From positions 1 to 42,492 of the IMG/VR virus record IMGVR_UViG_2645727821_000010: a DNA stretch of 42,492 nt; one strand, 5' to 3'. A model generated the notes under the pieces. That model worked only from the letters and a program-made list of their open reading frames with translations, did no database searches and was not told the origin of the DNA. Below, in pieces: positions 4,475 through 20,568 of this stretch (its first letter is position 1; every line of letters begins with the position of its first letter). Origin of the DNA: a virus. Its lineage: Duplodnaviria; Heunggongvirae; Uroviricota; Caudoviricetes. The translations under genes and the position numbers were made by a program.

Positions 4475-5388
4475 CCAGAATCACTGAAGAGCGTATATCA
4501 GAGATTATTTCCCGTATCGAAATGTATGGTCACGGTGCTGGATATACGGCAGATGAAGTATTGGCACTTGCCCAAATGGCTTTGGCGGCTTGCAAAGATG
4601 ATAAAAAAATGAAGCTTATCGACTTGTTAGTGAAGGAGCTGCCTAAGTGCGGCGGGTGGCCTGATGGAATGAGTTATTGTTACCTACCCTGTGTCAATTT
4701 AATGGCACCATGCGCGACTTTTGCTTTTGGCTCAGACCACAAAAAAGACACTTTCTTTGGGCGCAATTTTTGTTGTGAGATTGAGCTTCCAATTGGTGGC
4801 CTTGATAGCGATGAATACCAGTCAGTTGTCACTCGCGAACAATACGAATCAGCTCTCATAGCGTCGCAGAAAGTCGAGTTCAATGGTGATGAACTTGAAA
4901 GTAAGACTTACAGGTTGGATTTTGGGCAATGGCTGGAACAGCAACGCGGGAAAATCGATGTGGACTGTGGTTGTGTGTCCACTGAAACATTCATGCACTG
5001 GCTGCGGGTAGCTTACGAGGCTGGCAACTATCCGGATATTCCGGATAGTTCGGTGCCAGGGTCAGGAAAGGGCGTCACCGGTGAACGTATCCGCATTAAA
5101 CCGCATGTTTATCGCGAACTGGTTAACCGTCTCCACGATACAGCGATCAAGTGTGCGGGCACCCAGCAATTACGAGAAAGAATTAGCCGTGTTTTGGGCG
5201 ACGTTATTACGCCAGATCATCATAAACAAGCCGAGAAAAGTGGCTTGGAAAGGTGTCACCTTGAGGCGGCATTAAACATTAAGCCGGGGCATACGCTTGG
5301 CATTATTGATGCACTATTGGTTCATAAGATGGCCAGGGCTTTATTGCCGCTGGTGGATGCTGGCGATACAAGCGAGGGTGAAGTATGA
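4471..5388 (+). CDS. hypothetical protein, 305 aa; N-terminus (MTRITEERISE) is a third member of the ITKER domain family
   Basis: ORF 4456..5388; start at 4471 preferred because of the ATGA overlap with the upstream stop and the parallel with the paralogs at 971 and 2381. Confidence 0.6.
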   Translation: MTRITEERISEIISRIEMYGHGAGYTADEVLALAQMALAACKDDKKMKLIDLLVKELPKCGGWPDGMSYCYLPCVNLMAPCATFAFGSDHKKDTFFGRNFCCEIELPIGGLDSDEYQSVVTREQYESALIASQKVEFNGDELESKTYRLDFGQWLEQQRGKIDVDCGCVSTETFMHWLRVAYEAGNYPDIPDSSVPGSGKGVTGERIRIKPHVYRELVNRLHDTAIKCAGTQQLRERISRVLGDVITPDHHKQAEKSGLERCHLEAALNIKPGHTLGIIDALLVHKMARALLPLVDAGDTSEGEV

Positions 5389-5747
5389 GAGTTGCAGATC
5401 ACATCAAACACCTTGAAAGAATTATCGAAAACGGTGAACTCTTAAGAGATCAGATGAGACGCACGGCAGAAGTCAGAGAGGCGATAATCCGCAGTCAGGC
5501 TGGTAAATTAAAGCAATTGTCAGAGATTAACGCGCTATACAAGAACAGACGTAACCGGGCGGCGCTTCGGCTTCAGAAAGCACGTAATGAAATTAAATTG
5601 GTGGAGGCAAAACTGAAAAAACAGATTCAGCGTTACGATCAGCAAGATGCTTTTTATGCCGCCATCAAGGCGGCTGCTAATGAAATAGGCATCTGGAAGT
5701 TGCTGGTGGAGAAAGCAAAGACGAAGTTAAATGCCAACGAAAGCTGA
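5385..5747 (+). CDS. hypothetical coiled-coil protein, 120 aa
   Basis: ORF track; ATGA overlap with the upstream gene; last gene of the left-hand plus-strand operon. Confidence 0.55.
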   Translation: MRVADHIKHLERIIENGELLRDQMRRTAEVREAIIRSQAGKLKQLSEINALYKNRRNRAALRLQKARNEIKLVEAKLKKQIQRYDQQDAFYAAIKAAANEIGIWKLLVEKAKTKLNANES

Positions 5748-5821
5748 ACTACAGGTACCCACCAGCACATACAGAAAATGATTGTTTCCACATCAAGGAG
5801 ATTTTAATGTTTCACTGAACA

Positions 5822-5959
5822 TTAAGTAAGCCAGTGCATAATTCCATTTTTTACTGACCTTAAAAGCAAAATCAAAACGATGATGAGGATGATCGCCAGA
5901 ATCTGGCTAATAACAGGCGCATCTAAAAATGCACTCAGGAACTGAAAAAAAGCAGTCAT
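5822..5959 (-). CDS. candidate small hydrophobic peptide, 45 aa (MTAFFQFLSAFLDAPVISQILAIILIIVLILLLRSVKNGIMHWLT)
   Basis: Hand translation of the minus strand; AAGGAA 8 nt upstream of the ATG; single predicted transmembrane helix; below the ORF-track size cut-off. Confidence 0.25.
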   Translation of the reverse strand: MTAFFQFLSAFLDAPVISQILAIILIIVLILLLRSVKNGIMHWLT

Positions 5960-6821
5960 TAAGGTGGTTCCTTGTCAAATGTAAAGGAGCACTTGCTCAC
6001 GTTGACGTAGAAACCCAACCCCTATATAGTTGGATTCGGTGAAAGAAAGTCGTTAACGTGAGCTTACGGCACATGTTTTCGGAACAACATCAGGGAACGG
6101 CTAATTCCTTGATGCGGATGGGGTCTGTAATGCAGACCCTATCTATTAACGTCATGATTGCATCTCAAATTTTCTCCTTATCTTCAATTAATCTACATTC
6201 ATTTCATCTGTTAGCCACCACAATATGTAGAAAATGGCCCTCTTGCAAGTGCATAACTTTGTGGATAACTCAGGAAGGAAAAAGTGGCTTTCGCGCACCT
6301 TCGGTCAGACAAGGTGTCCGGGAAAGTCAACGCAAAGAAAAAAATTGTTAAAAATAACGTTTGTTGGAATTGTATATTTTTATCCCCTTCAATGGTTAGC
6401 ATTCTATTAACATCTTTTTTTAGAGACAGAAAAACATATCGTAACAACATATATACAGTATTAAGAGGCGAGTATTATCCTGCGGTGGGAATTCTGGTCG
6501 CTGTTAGATTCGACTTTCTCAGCAGGATTACATCGTCAACTTGCGACGTTGCCGTATGTCTTTCGTGTAATAGGTGACAATGATGCGGCTAGTGAGTTAC
6601 TTGTGAAGTTTTTCGGAAAAGGTTTTGTGGCCTCGGATCTTGATGAGCTACAGCAACATGAAGTGTCTAATTTGATTTTTAGCCATAGCCAATAAGCCTC
6701 CCTCCTCCATCAAGGCCACAATTTGTGACCTTAAACAATTTGTTTTCTGCTTTTTCTTATTTGAGAAAATAACGTTGTTGACAGCTAATAGGCTCGTTGT
6801 TGTTATACATGCCTGTATAGA

Positions 6822-15589: not shown

Positions 15590-16621
15590 ATGTCCAATTT
15601 ACTGACCGTACATCAAAATTTGCCTGCATTACCGGTCGATGCAACGAGTGATGAGGTTCGCAAGAACCTGATGGACATGTTCAGGGATCGCCAGGCGTTT
15701 TCTGAGCATACCTGGAAAATGCTTCTGTCCGTTTGCCGGTCATGGGCGGCATGGTGCAAGTTGAATAACCGGAAATGGTTTCCCGCAGAACCTGAAGATG
15801 TTCGCGATTATCTTCTATATCTTCAGGCGCGCGGTCTGGCAGTGAAAACTATCCAGCAACATTTGGGCCAGCTAAATATGCTTCATCGTCGGTCCGGGCT
15901 GCCACGACCAAGTGACAGCAATGCTGTTTCACTGGTCATGCGACGGATCCGAAAAGAAAACGTTGATGCCGGTGAGCGTGCAAAACAGGCGCTGGCGTTC
16001 GAACGCACTGATTTCGACCAGGTTCGTTCACTCATGGGAAATAGCGATCGCTGCCAGGATATACGGAATCTGGCATTTCTGGGGATTGCTTATAACACCC
16101 TGTTACGTATAGCCGAAATTGCCAGGATCAGGGTTAAAGATATCTCACGTACTGACGGTGGGAGAATGTTAATCCATATTGGCAGAACGAAAACGCTGGT
16201 TAGCACCGCAGGTGTAGAGAAGGCACTTAGCCTGGGGGTAACTAAACTGGTCGAGCGATGGATTTCCGTCTCTGGTGTGGCTGATGATCCGAATAACTAC
16301 TTGTTTTGCCGGGTCAGAAAAAATGGTGTTGCCTCGCCATCATCCACCAGCCAGCTATCAACTCGCGCCCTGGAAGGGATTTTTGAAGCAACTCACCGAT
16401 TGATTTACGGGGCTAAGGATGACTCTGGTCAGAGGTACCTGGCCTGGTCTGGACACAGTGCCCGTGTCGGAGCCGCGCGAGATATGGCCCGCGCCGGAGT
16501 TTCAATACCGGAGATCATGCAAGCTGGTGGCTGGACCAACGTAAATATTGTCATGAACTATATCCGTAACCTGGATAGTGAAACAGGGGCAATGGTGCGC
16601 CTGCTGGAAGATGGCGATTAG
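15590..16621 (+). CDS. cre: Cre tyrosine site-specific recombinase, 343 aa
   Basis: Translation essentially identical to P1 Cre; catalytic R173, H289, R292, W315 and Y324 are all present; loxP lies 418 bp upstream. Confidence 0.98.
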   Translation: MSNLLTVHQNLPALPVDATSDEVRKNLMDMFRDRQAFSEHTWKMLLSVCRSWAAWCKLNNRKWFPAEPEDVRDYLLYLQARGLAVKTIQQHLGQLNMLHRRSGLPRPSDSNAVSLVMRRIRKENVDAGERAKQALAFERTDFDQVRSLMGNSDRCQDIRNLAFLGIAYNTLLRIAEIARIRVKDISRTDGGRMLIHIGRTKTLVSTAGVEKALSLGVTKLVERWISVSGVADDPNNYLFCRVRKNGVASPSSTSQLSTRALEGIFEATHRLIYGAKDDSGQRYLAWSGHSARVGAARDMARAGVSIPEIMQAGGWTNVNIVMNYIRNLDSETGAMVRLLEDGD

Positions 16622-17979: not shown

Positions 17980-18621
17980 ATGGATAAGAAAATATGCGTT
18001 GTTTCGATGAGCGTCGGCAAACCGGCGTCAATGACTGCCGCATGGATCAACAATGAGCTGATAATGGCTGAGCGGACCAGCTACCCTGAACGCCGCCGCG
18101 ATATGGAACTCCAGCTGCTGCGCGAATTGCGAGAAAAAGAGGAAAAGGGTTTTATCGTGCTGGTGGAAGAGGAAAACAGCTTTATTACGGGTCGAGTTGG
18201 CCAGCGTGTAAGGTTGCGCGATCCCTTCATGAACGGCAGGCCGGTACTAATTGAAGCAATGCAGATTTACAAGGAGCTGGAACGCCAGAAAGCGATCAAG
18301 TTACCGCGCAAAGAATCCGGCAAATACATCCTCCACCAAAGCATCTTCGATTCCGAACACGACAAAAAAGGCGATGAATTTTTCAACATCAACTGGAGCG
18401 AAATAACGACAGAGCACGTTCTGTCGTTGTTATGCTGCTTCGCAACGGAATATAACAACGTTGCAAGCGCCGACTACATCAGGGCAATGGCTGGAGAAGT
18501 TGAGGCCCGCCAGGAACCATCGTTACTAAGCCCTCTGATTAACATAATTCGCGGAACCCAATGTCTAGCCGACAAGCGAGTTCCTCAAGGCTTACTTACC
18601 GGCAAAGAAAACTATTTATAA
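17980..18621 (+). CDS. mat: Mat-like particle maturation protein (alternative starts at 17833 or 17869)
   Basis: ORF track 17833..18621; ATG at 17980 has AAGGGG upstream; assigned by synteny (after ref), not by recognised sequence. Confidence 0.5.
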   Translation: MDKKICVVSMSVGKPASMTAAWINNELIMAERTSYPERRRDMELQLLRELREKEEKGFIVLVEEENSFITGRVGQRVRLRDPFMNGRPVLIEAMQIYKELERQKAIKLPRKESGKYILHQSIFDSEHDKKGDEFFNINWSEITTEHVLSLLCCFATEYNNVASADYIRAMAGEVEARQEPSLLSPLINIIRGTQCLADKRVPQGLLTGKENYL

Positions 18622-18653
18622 TTAATTACGTCAGTAGCCAATAGAGATTTTTG

Positions 18654-18682
18654 TTGTGGAACAAAAATATATATTTTACAAT
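18654..18682 (+). promoter_or_regulatory. candidate sigma70 promoter for the accessory cassette: -35 TTGTGG (18654-18659), 17-bp spacer, -10 TACAAT (18677-18682)
   Basis: Hexamers and spacing read directly; about 30 bp upstream of the cassette start. Confidence 0.3.
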
Positions 18683-18711
18683 CTAGTAACTTTGGGTGGA
18701 GGATTATTACA

Positions 18712-19752
18712 ATGATGAATATTAAGCCGCTGAAAATTAGGAACAAGGTCATGAAGCCTCATAAAGCATCATTAAACCCTGACCTAACCGCAAGGAATGT
18801 ACTTACATACAGTCATTGGGATTTTGTCGAACTCTGGTTAAAGCGAAACGAAAAAGATGAGGCTCTTTTTTATTGGGAGCAAGCAAAAGTATTTAATCAG
18901 GCGGCCAATGGTTTACCCAACCAATCAGCCCCACTTTTGCACTATTATTCATTCATGAATGCAGTAAAGGCGTTACTTTCATCTCGCAATATAAACTTCA
19001 AACAGCATCATGGTGTTGCTAGGGGTGAAAATGCAGCCCAAATTGATAACTTATCTGATATAAAAGTAAAAATAAAAAATGAGGGTATACTTCCGTCTTT
19101 TTCAAAATATATTGACGGCACCTCTCATGAGGGGGTGTACAATATAAAAAACCTTTTTTCTGGATTGCCATATATTCATCGTACATATTGCCTTACTTAT
19201 GATGTAACTGATGATATATTTATTCCACTGATCGATGCTGAGTTCGTTTTGAATGAGTCAGACAATAGCCTGTTTTTCACTGCGATTTTATCCAAGGATT
19301 TTCGGTTCGACACAGTTTTCGACATTCTACCGCCAGCGTTCGAATTGTTTGAAAGAGAAAAGTACAAAATAAAATCAGTAGAATCATTACTTGATTTTAA
19401 TGAAAATCAATCGTCCAACATGCCGCAATTAACTGAATTTCATCAAAAAATAAGAAGAAATCTTTACTATATCAATGGCGCAGAGACTCTTTGGTATCTC
19501 AAACGTAAAAACAATCAATCTGAGCATACTTCTGTTTCAATATCGCCATTGGTTATAACCCTAGCAGCTATGCATCGATTAAGTGAGCTATGTCGGTATG
19601 ACCCACTTAAGCTAAGACAGTTACTAAATGAAAAAGAAAACTGGATTATTGCTGAATTTATTCAACAATCTCCGTCACAGTTTATAGATGCAATTTCATC
19701 TGAAATTACTGGACACCAATTTCTTATCCCAAACGTAAGGTCTGCTTCTTAA
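18712..19752 (+). CDS. hypothetical protein, 346 aa, first gene of a low-GC accessory cassette; possible R-x6-H motif (R265...H272)
   Basis: ORF track; GGTGGAGGA ribosome-binding site; A/T-rich codon usage unlike the flanking P1 backbone; no family recognised with confidence. Confidence 0.7.
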   Translation: MMNIKPLKIRNKVMKPHKASLNPDLTARNVLTYSHWDFVELWLKRNEKDEALFYWEQAKVFNQAANGLPNQSAPLLHYYSFMNAVKALLSSRNINFKQHHGVARGENAAQIDNLSDIKVKIKNEGILPSFSKYIDGTSHEGVYNIKNLFSGLPYIHRTYCLTYDVTDDIFIPLIDAEFVLNESDNSLFFTAILSKDFRFDTVFDILPPAFELFEREKYKIKSVESLLDFNENQSSNMPQLTEFHQKIRRNLYYINGAETLWYLKRKNNQSEHTSVSISPLVITLAAMHRLSELCRYDPLKLRQLLNEKENWIIAEFIQQSPSQFIDAISSEITGHQFLIPNVRSAS

Positions 19753-20261
19753 TGAATATATATATCGCATGCGCTTTAACTCATGTTCCAAGGGAAATTT
19801 TCCATGAGTACAGTAATTGGATTCACAGCCTTGCAAAAGGTTTATCTCAAAATAACAACGTAAAATATGCTTTGATAAATAGTGACCCAGAATTATCAAA
19901 GCGCCCTGAAAGTAACAAATCTAGACTTTGTTACATTTGGGACAGAGATATGGTTGAGAAATCTGATGTAATAATTGCAGAATGTAGTTTTCCATCAACA
20001 GGGCTAGGAATAGAGTTGCAGATTGCTGAACAGAAGAACATTCCTGTAATCATCTGTTATAAAGATTATGGGATAAATAAAACTAAAACCATTGAATACG
20101 TGAATCCAGATGAGACTACCCATAATCTACAAGTTGGCGAGGGTTTCATTTCTCATATGGTATTAGGACTACCAAACATCCTTGATGTCATATTATGTAA
20201 AGATATTGATAACACATGCAGGAAGCTAAAAATACTGTTAGATATGATTAACCATAATTAA
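19752..20261 (+). CDS. nucleoside 2-deoxyribosyltransferase-like (NDT/DNPH1-type flavodoxin-like fold) protein, 169 aa
   Basis: TAATG translational coupling to the upstream gene; N-terminal NIYIACAL and central SDVIIAECSFPSTGLGIELQIAEQKNIPVI resemble the NDT-family pattern with a candidate catalytic Glu88. Confidence 0.7.
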   Translation: MNIYIACALTHVPREIFHEYSNWIHSLAKGLSQNNNVKYALINSDPELSKRPESNKSRLCYIWDRDMVEKSDVIIAECSFPSTGLGIELQIAEQKNIPVIICYKDYGINKTKTIEYVNPDETTHNLQVGEGFISHMVLGLPNILDVILCKDIDNTCRKLKILLDMINHN

Positions 20262-20291
20262 AAATTAACACCCACTTAAGATGTCTAAACC

Positions 20292-20311
20292 AGCCCGGTA
20301 TTAACCGGGCT
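20292..20311. terminator. hairpin AGCCCGGT-ATTA-ACCGGGCT between the convergent NDT-like gene and lxc
   Basis: 8-bp perfect stem with a 4-nt loop; weak flanking T-tracts. Confidence 0.4.
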
Positions 20312-20319
20312 AGACAAAC

Positions 20320-20568
20320 TTAATCAGCATTCAGGAGCAATGCATTATCTATGATGATTTGCTCCCATTCTTCGAATGCCCGGTCGCGGACGCCCTGGGG
20401 AACGCTGTTAGTTTTGAAATCGACGACCGTACGCCATTTCCCGTCCGGGCGGTACATGCGCAGAGCTTTACTTCCCCCTTCCCTGCGCACCTCAACGTTA
20501 TGCTTATCAGCAAACTCTTGTAATGCTCGTAGCGTCCCATGCTTTACTGTGTAGTATCGCTTTTTCAA
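20320..20568 (-). CDS. lxc: Lxc/Bof-like modulator of C1 repression, 82 aa, TTG start
   Basis: Size and position downstream of ulx and darB, as in P1; the start codon read from the sequence is TTG. Confidence 0.7.
   Translation of the reverse strand: MKKRYYTVKHGTLRALQEFADKHNVEVRREGGSKALRMYRPDGKWRTVVDFKTNSVPQGVRDRAFEEWEQIIIDNALLLNAD

Follow-up and report, generated by a model that had tools for sequence, protein, structure and literature searches.

The window analysed here, a stretch of 42,492 nucleotides (IMG/VR virus record IMGVR_UViG_2645727821_000010, positions 1 to 42,492), is a phage P1-like phage-plasmid. Between its mat and lxc genes lies a cassette of two genes, of which the first encodes a YaaC-family protein and the second a small protein akin to nucleoside 2-deoxyribosyltransferase (NDT) and to human DNPH1 (Rcl), hereafter the NDT-like protein. 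The NDT-like protein is probably a (deoxy)nucleotide N-glycosidase and the enzymatic part of a candidate two-gene anti-phage system. This reading draws on the fold of the protein, its conserved active-site residues, the conservation of the gene pair, and the setting of the pair in a hotspot and in defence islands. The features of the locus are as follows.

15590-16621: Cre, followed by C8, Ref and Mat.
Ending at 18621: mat, the left flank of the cassette.
18622-20319: the two-gene low-GC cassette, between mat and lxc.
18694-18703, + strand: a purine-rich Shine-Dalgarno-like stretch, GGGTGGAGGA, 8 nt 5' of the YaaC ATG, as read from the sequence.
18712-19752, + strand: the YaaC-family gene, first of the pair, 346 amino acids (aa).
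19750-19754, + strand: the TAATG junction, a 1-base overlap between the stop codon of YaaC and the start codon of the NDT-like gene.
19752-20261, + strand: the NDT/DNPH1-like gene, 169 aa, with an ATG start and a TAA stop at 20259-20261.
20292-20311: a GC-rich hairpin, AGCCCGG-tattaa-CCGGGCT, in the space where the NDT-like gene and lxc converge, as read from the sequence.
20320-20568, - strand: Lxc, followed by Ulx and the 2255-aa DarB, also on the opposite strand.

An annotated identical plasmid has the gene order mat, YaaC, hypothetical, lxc, ulx and darB. The GC content of the cassette is 34-36%, compared with 48-53% in its flanks. The initial annotation had described the open reading frame (ORF) at 19752-20261 as the second gene of a cassette, and this was confirmed: the 346-aa ORF upstream overlaps it through TAATG, and both lie in the low-GC block. 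The overlap suggests that the YaaC and NDT-like genes may be translationally coupled. That the NDT-like ORF is genuine, and no product of chance, is shown by its 238 homologues, with E values down to 1e-108. A simple scan of 18622-18711 found no consensus sigma-70 promoter, and a consensus promoter and terminator scan gave no convincing sites on either side of the operon. The hairpin at 20292-20311 may be a terminator, perhaps common to the NDT-like gene and lxc; since the + strand lacks a T-run, it escaped the terminator scan.

The product of the second gene is predicted to adopt the NDT/DNPH1 (Rcl) superfamily fold, as the initial annotation had proposed from the pattern of its sequence. Profile searches, pairwise profile alignment, a structural model and a structural search all agree on this point. 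With the single sequence, a Pfam search matched PF05014 (Nuc_deoxyrib_tr) with an E value of 1.8e-4 and 22.1 bits, short of the gathering score (28.8); precomputed PF05014 matches are present in many of its homologues. When a profile of 38 family members was compared with the sequences in the PDB, rat Rcl and human DNPH1 ranked first (E 5.8e-5). An hhalign comparison with human DNPH1, whose sequence was verified against PDB entries, gave a probability of 94.7%. The AlphaFold2 (AF2) model is a single domain of high confidence (pLDDT 96.3, pTM 0.89) with the Flavodoxin/Rossmann-like alpha/beta fold of NDT and Rcl. Its best Foldseek match in the PDB was DNPH1 (E 4.7e-6, target-normalised TM 0.75). 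The list was headed by DNPH1, several NDTs and the CMP N-glycosidase BcmB (probability 1.00, target-normalised TM 0.70-0.78), with some azoreductase/AcpD chains lower down. The protein appears closest to those hydrolases of the superfamily that act on nucleoside 5'-monophosphates by splitting their N-glycosidic bond, and it is predicted to have this activity. The listed homologues are about 163-191 aa long, share 48-72% identity with it and come from distant phyla. The NCBI label of the protein is 'hypothetical protein', while one UniRef cluster bears the name 'Nucleoside 2-deoxyribosyltransferase'. Searches of NCBIfam and PHROGs gave no meaningful match for either protein of the cassette.

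A sister family of longer proteins (250-565 aa; P0321-P0343 and P0360) has an N-terminal domain akin to the NDT-like family. Its core motif is PSTGTGQELERA, and the insertion region of the NDT-like family, described below, is matched as well. The C-terminal tails of these proteins are long, helical and of low complexity, and a Pfam scan of the proteins found no recognisable fused domains.

The sequence elements on which the initial annotation relied are in place. The N-terminal strand motif IYIACAL corresponds to I3-Y4-I5-A6-C7-A8-L9, of which residues 2-6 form a strand in the AF2 model, and the central motif is found at S71-DVIIAEC-78. The segment G84-LGIELQIAEQKNIPVI contains Glu88, which had been placed at the catalytic position; hhalign aligned it with the nucleophile E104 of human DNPH1. 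In the same alignment D64 corresponds to D80 and S82 to S98 of the human enzyme. Glu88 was also aligned with the Glu of the GYELG motif in rat Rcl, and the motif 'PSTGLGIELQ' around it matches 'PSLGVGYELG' of DNPH1. None of 38 homologues departs from Y4, D64 or E88, and the conservation of S82 is at least 90%. We list Y4, D64 and E88 as candidate catalytic residues and S82 as the candidate phosphate-binding Ser. Y4 lies in strand beta-1, where the PF05014 match begins (residue 4 at profile position 2). It may be the equivalent of the catalytic Tyr in NDT and DNPH1, to judge from its position and the start of the Pfam match alone. The DNPH1 mutants D80A, D80N and Y24F have been deposited in the PDB, which indicates that D80 and Y24 have been functionally studied. 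The presence of Ser82 at the position of Ser98 points to a nucleoside 5'-monophosphate as the probable substrate; classical NDTs have an Asp at this position. For the second phosphate-binding Ser of DNPH1, which is supplied by the neighbouring subunit of the homodimer, no counterpart could be assigned because of an insertion after strand beta-4.

The association of the two genes is strongly conserved. GTDB genomes, metagenomes and IMG/VR together yielded 145 loci, and in 133 of them YaaC immediately precedes the NDT-like gene in the same orientation. In 128 of 129 pairs the two genes lie -4 to +35 nt apart, and the 1-nt overlap seen in the window recurs in 30 of the 129. The pair occurs in Alpha-, Beta- and Gammaproteobacteria, Bacteroidota, Planctomycetota, Cyanobacteria, Acidobacteriota, Myxococcota, Campylobacterota, Spirochaetota and Nitrospirota. 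YaaC and the NDT-like protein form a widespread, horizontally mobile two-gene module.

At four loci, a gene resembling deoxycytidine triphosphate (dCTP) deaminase stands in place of YaaC upstream of an orthologous NDT-like gene:

L008 (Desulfarculales), 5009-6004: dCTP-deaminase-like gene.
L050 (Piscirickettsia salmonis), 5046-5996: dCTP-deaminase-like gene.
L071 (metagenomic contig), 1304-2290: dCTP-deaminase-like gene.
L092 (metagenomic contig), 3-314: dCTP-deaminase-like gene.

Three of the four overlap the NDT-like gene through ATGA. The three complete copies encode proteins of 316-331 aa, and the two that were scanned (L008 and L050) matched PF22769 with E values of about 1e-26. By comparison with E. 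coli Dcd, these partners retain the Dcd motifs GRSSxARLG and PLE(I/L)xN. At the C-terminus they are extended by about 150 aa, including two hydrophobic segments that may span a membrane, and they match no PADLOC model. The NDT-like genes with a deaminase-like partner nest among those associated with YaaC; therefore, the partner was swapped while the NDT-like gene was kept. A common NDT-binding module in YaaC and the deaminase-like partner was considered and rejected, since hhalign found no shared domain. The deaminase variants support a role of the NDT-like protein in deoxynucleotide chemistry. They parallel the pair of DutZ and DmtZ in Z-genome phages, in which a dUTPase-fold enzyme converting dATP to dAMP (DutZ) is fused or adjacent to an NDT-like enzyme converting dAMP to adenine (DmtZ) (PMC12884076). 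In two related metagenome-assembled genomes of Acidobacteriaceae, a weakly matching HipA_2-like protein and a ShosT-like phosphoribosyltransferase (PRTase; PADLOC ShosT E 8e-7) lie upstream of the NDT-like gene with a gap of 155 bp (L031:3991-5846 and L052:4150-5908). The NDT-like gene of the second genome is frameshifted. This arrangement is a single observation and could be mere adjacency.

The YaaC protein has the four-helix HEPN fold. Its HEPN-like bundle consists of N-terminal helices (residues ~35-91) and C-terminal helices (~279-333) and is split by an alpha/beta insert of about 180 aa. The polar residues H100, H156, R157, R248, H288, R295, E315, D326, E331 and R343 are invariant in the family, and within the C-terminal helices M287, H288, S291, R295 and Y296 (motif MHRLSELCRY) are invariant. 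When these helices were read by eye, no canonical HEPN Rx4-6H motif was found; hence an RNase activity of YaaC is not to be assumed. In the insert (residues ~95-270), H100-G, H156-R-T, S194, S222, R248 and T259-LWY are invariant, and Foldseek returned only very weak matches to the 2H phosphoesterase Usb1 (E about 0.5), perhaps noise. YaaC homologues with 34-37% identity were also found in viral contigs of IMG/VR (L157-L162) with no NDT-like gene downstream; in L157 an uncharacterised ORF of at least 339 aa takes its place. YaaC may work alone or with other partners.

The insertion site of the cassette was compared with the corresponding regions of related phages. Homology to P1 ends exactly at the end of mat, at window position 18621. 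The interval 18622-20319 was compared with NC_005856 (3469-9749), NC_031129 (SJ46), ON470615 and FO818745. The gene order in P1 is mat-res-mod-lxc, the slot being filled by the res and mod genes of EcoP1I, a type III system. A 373-aa RelA/SpoT protein, which we took to be CapRelSJ46, is encoded there in Salmonella phage SJ46, and vB_EcoM-673R5 has a split RelA/SpoT gene. CapRelSJ46 reportedly acts as an anti-phage system. The slot of RCS47 looks empty, with flanks about 100 bp apart by the span of the megablast matches. Because the slot that holds the cassette is elsewhere filled by EcoP1I or CapRel, the mat-lxc interval is a defence hotspot of P1-like phages. Further hypothetical genes occupy it in JL22 and other records.

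Copies of the cassette were found in 85 plasmids of PLSDB. Of 5,426 complete E. coli genomes, 109 (about 2%) carry it, almost always on plasmids of the P1 type. The exact NDT-like protein occurs on at least 1,000 contigs. Elements carrying the cassette are deposited as plasmids in PLSDB and are also present in IMG/VR, and a megablast search of the INPHARED phage records with the cassette gave no match. On another IMG/VR contig (L144:6943-8513, UViG 3300020592_000112), the pair is inserted in opposite orientation between the genes for the capsid and the tail tube in a prophage with lambda-like morphogenesis genes; this is an independent moron acquisition by an unrelated phage lineage.

Outside the P1-like elements, the pair is repeatedly found beside known defence genes. 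In an E. coli chromosome (GCA_031463515.1, L054:5510-20507), a homologous YaaC-NDT pair, whose NDT-like protein is 72% identical to that of the window, has BrxR and an integrase fragment on one side and, on the other, a cluster of the Dpd type for 7-deazaguanine modification of DNA, with DpdD, a DEAD helicase and a PLD nuclease; the island also holds QueD/PTPS. The pair adjoins Gabija in Bradyrhizobium (GajA E 1.8e-172, GajB E 2.4e-125) and Pycsar in Chryseobacterium (PycC E 4e-142, together with PycTM). An Abi_2 gene lies next to the P. salmonis locus with the deaminase-like partner, and on a further viral contig of IMG/VR the pair adjoins genes for Mrr_cat and DUF2971 proteins. Among 138 nearest neighbours of 47 genome loci, a raw tally without a matched background control, PADLOC models (E < 1e-10) matched a type I restriction endonuclease and methyltransferase, GajA/B, PycC, dGTPase, CBASS E1-E2, mad3, PDC-M19A/B and PDC-M45B/C.

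A role outside defence would make the pair a housekeeping or auxiliary system for nucleotide salvage or sanitising, or one that benefits the phage itself by counter-defence or by balancing pools for P1 replication. DNPH1 and the NDTs are indeed metabolic enzymes, phages encode NDT-like enzymes such as DmtZ for their own nucleotide metabolism, and the namesake of the YaaC family in Bacillus subtilis is a chromosomal gene of unknown function. The distribution just described argues in the other direction. The cassette is patchily distributed, with some 2% of the complete E. coli genomes carrying it, nearly always on a P1-like plasmid; it is of low GC content and interchangeable with restriction-modification and CapRel systems; and known defence systems adjoin the pair repeatedly in unrelated phyla. 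We regard a non-defence role as highly improbable.

The same genomic context bears on which of the two proteins is the effector. The initial annotation had left room for the NDT-like protein to be either a nucleotide-pool effector or the neutralising partner of the upstream protein, and had stated that NDT-like proteins serve as antitoxins in some toxin-antitoxin pairs. This statement could not be confirmed: no published NDT-like antitoxin was found, and those NDT-like proteins that turned up in papers on defence act as toxic effectors (retron Ec86 and Thoeris VIII ThsI). In a toxin-antitoxin or addiction module YaaC would be the toxin, and the NDT-like protein would neutralise it by binding, or would enzymatically clear away a product or signal that is toxic; as a result, the plasmid prophage would be stabilised by the pair, or abortive infection would be set off through YaaC. 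Such a module would agree with two small, translationally coupled genes, with an NDT-like gene that stays constant while its partner varies (HEPN-like YaaC, dCTP deaminase or ShosT-like PRTase), and with a slot that elsewhere carries restriction-modification genes and the fused toxin-antitoxin CapRel. However, it would be unusual for an antitoxin that only binds its toxin to keep an invariant catalytic triad, the canonical HEPN motif is absent from YaaC, and the YaaC homologues that stand without an NDT-like neighbour indicate that the pairing is not obligatory. A toxin-antitoxin module therefore seems rather unlikely to us, and the context favours an effector role of the NDT-like protein over that of a neutralising partner.

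In the preferred reading, that of an N-glycosidase effector, the substrate, the role of YaaC, the trigger and the protection itself are inferred, whereas the fold, the conserved active site, the gene pair and its genomic context are shown by the analysis. Glu88 would act as the nucleophile, assisted by Asp64 and Tyr4, and Ser82 would hold the 5'-phosphate. The enzyme would convert (deoxy)nucleoside monophosphates to the free base and (deoxy)ribose-5-phosphate, so that nucleotide precursors needed by an invading phage would be drained. YaaC could be a sensor or regulator, or a second enzyme that feeds or gates the NDT-like enzyme. The cassette would in this way protect the lysogen against other phages.

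A narrower form of immunity, which we consider quite unlikely, would be of a new kind that operates at the level of monophosphates, with YaaC as sensor or gate. The NDT-like enzyme would destroy either the deoxynucleoside monophosphates (dNMPs) that lytic phages recover when they break down host DNA, or modified precursors such as 5-hydroxymethyl-dCMP and -dUMP, which are substrates of DNPH1 and MilB, its nearest relatives of known activity. Host de novo synthesis of dNTPs, which proceeds via diphosphates, would be largely spared, and the immunity could be non-abortive and directed at modification. Partners of the dCTP-deaminase and PRTase kinds could then be alternative feeder or trigger modules of one common effector.

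The N-glycosidase effector system proposed here has to be weighed against several observations that count against it. No model of PADLOC-DB 2.0 (2023) matches YaaC or the NDT-like protein, which leaves the pair outside the systems catalogued up to 2023, and the defence role is accordingly argued from context only, including the neighbour tally with its want of a background control. The PF05014 score of the single sequence is under the gathering threshold. The swappable partners (HEPN-like, dCTP deaminase and PRTase) all have toxin-type folds, and a model with the NDT-like protein as constant regulator or antitoxin fits them equally. In addition, the N-terminal loop of the NDT-like protein reads ALTHVPR as against the phosphate loop GSIRGG of DNPH1, and a conserved insertion of about 30 aa (Y116-x-N-P-D ... 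L126-Q-x-G-x-G) is absent from DNPH1. Because this insertion has no DNPH1 counterpart, the substrate could differ and be NAD+/ADP-ribose or a signalling nucleotide. NAD+/ADP-ribose is a reported substrate of some retron NDT effectors.

The loop and the insertion leave room for an effector that acts in abortive infection on something other than dNMPs, namely NAD+/ADP-ribose, ATP-like molecules or, by base excision, nucleic acid. The NDT-like effector of retron Ec86 depletes adenine derivatives, and NDT domains in abortive-infection (Abi) proteins have been proposed to attack glycosidic bonds in DNA (Anantharaman et al. 2013, PMC3710099). On the other side stand the alignment of Ser82 with the 5'-phosphate-binding Ser98 of DNPH1, the closest solved structures, which are all mononucleotide hydrolases or nucleoside transferases, and the alternative dCTP-deaminase partner, which points to deoxynucleotide metabolism. 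We consider a non-dNMP substrate very doubtful.

If the preferred reading is correct, a compact two-gene defence system that is widespread across phyla would be added to the known repertoire, and its effector would be a bacterial relative of human DNPH1. Nucleotide-depletion immunity, which includes dCTP deaminase, dGTPase, ATP nucleosidase and NADases, would be extended to N-glycosidic cleavage of mononucleotides, and the uncharacterised YaaC family (PF14175) would gain its first functional context. The P1-like phage-plasmids that carry the cassette are the same elements that spread extended-spectrum beta-lactamase and other resistance genes. The mat-lxc slot of P1-like phages could be a place to find further defence systems.

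Within the resources consulted, searches of the literature for YaaC/PF14175 or for NDT-like/DNPH1 with defence terms found no description of the pair, and no paper was found that names YaaC together with phage defence. The closest enzymes are DNPH1/Rcl, a 2'-deoxynucleoside 5'-phosphate N-hydrolase and 5-hydroxymethyl-dUMP N-hydrolase, and BcmB and MilB, bacterial N-glycosidases of CMP/hmCMP, which share with the NDT-like protein the fold, a similar size, the single-domain build and the nucleophile motif PS(T/L)G(L/V)G(I/Y)EL. Sequence identity is only about 14-18%. Where DNPH1/Rcl have the GSIRGG loop, the NDT-like protein has its ALTHVPR loop and the insertion forms an extra hairpin (residues ~110-135). 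In contrast to DNPH1, BcmB and MilB, the NDT-like gene of the window is no housekeeping gene but forms part of a mobile operon, in which YaaC is the other gene.

Retrons of the Eco1/Ec86 and Sen2 RcaT type also use an NDT-like anti-phage effector, which depletes nucleobase or nucleotide derivatives, and they too reside on mobile elements. However, their effectors are two-lobed and about twice the size, and the partner in the window is YaaC. Membership of the cassette in the retrons was rejected: only the YaaC and NDT-like ORFs lie between mat and lxc, with neither a reverse transcriptase nor msr/msd. In the neighbourhoods inspected, without an Rfam scan, no reverse transcriptase adjoins the pair, except for an unrelated one of a group II intron 9 kb away at a single locus (L055). 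In type VIII Thoeris, ThsI combines a CMP-hydrolase/NDT-superfamily domain with TPR and is proposed to be a nucleotide-pool effector. Membership in this type was likewise rejected, since Pfam finds neither TIR nor TPR in the two proteins; for the same reason, activation by cyclic ADP-ribose is not expected.

The HEPN-based abortive-infection and toxin-antitoxin systems (HEPN-MNT and AbiJ-NTD1-NDT fusions) differ from the window pair, which has no MNT partner, no Rx4-6H motif and a large alpha/beta insert. The name YaaC does not occur in the survey of HEPN proteins (PMC3710099). A parallel to the four deaminase-variant loci is again the pair of DutZ and DmtZ, in which an NDT-like dNMP hydrolase is coupled to an enzyme of the dUTPase superfamily. 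The window differs in that its partner is YaaC and not a dUTPase-fold protein. DmtZ has an Asn in place of the Asp of the triad (PMC12884076), and it serves the phage's own DNA modification, whereas the pair described here is found in defence contexts. The NDT/DNPH1 fold and nucleotide-targeting defence are thus known from these systems, while the YaaC partner and the two-gene architecture are new.

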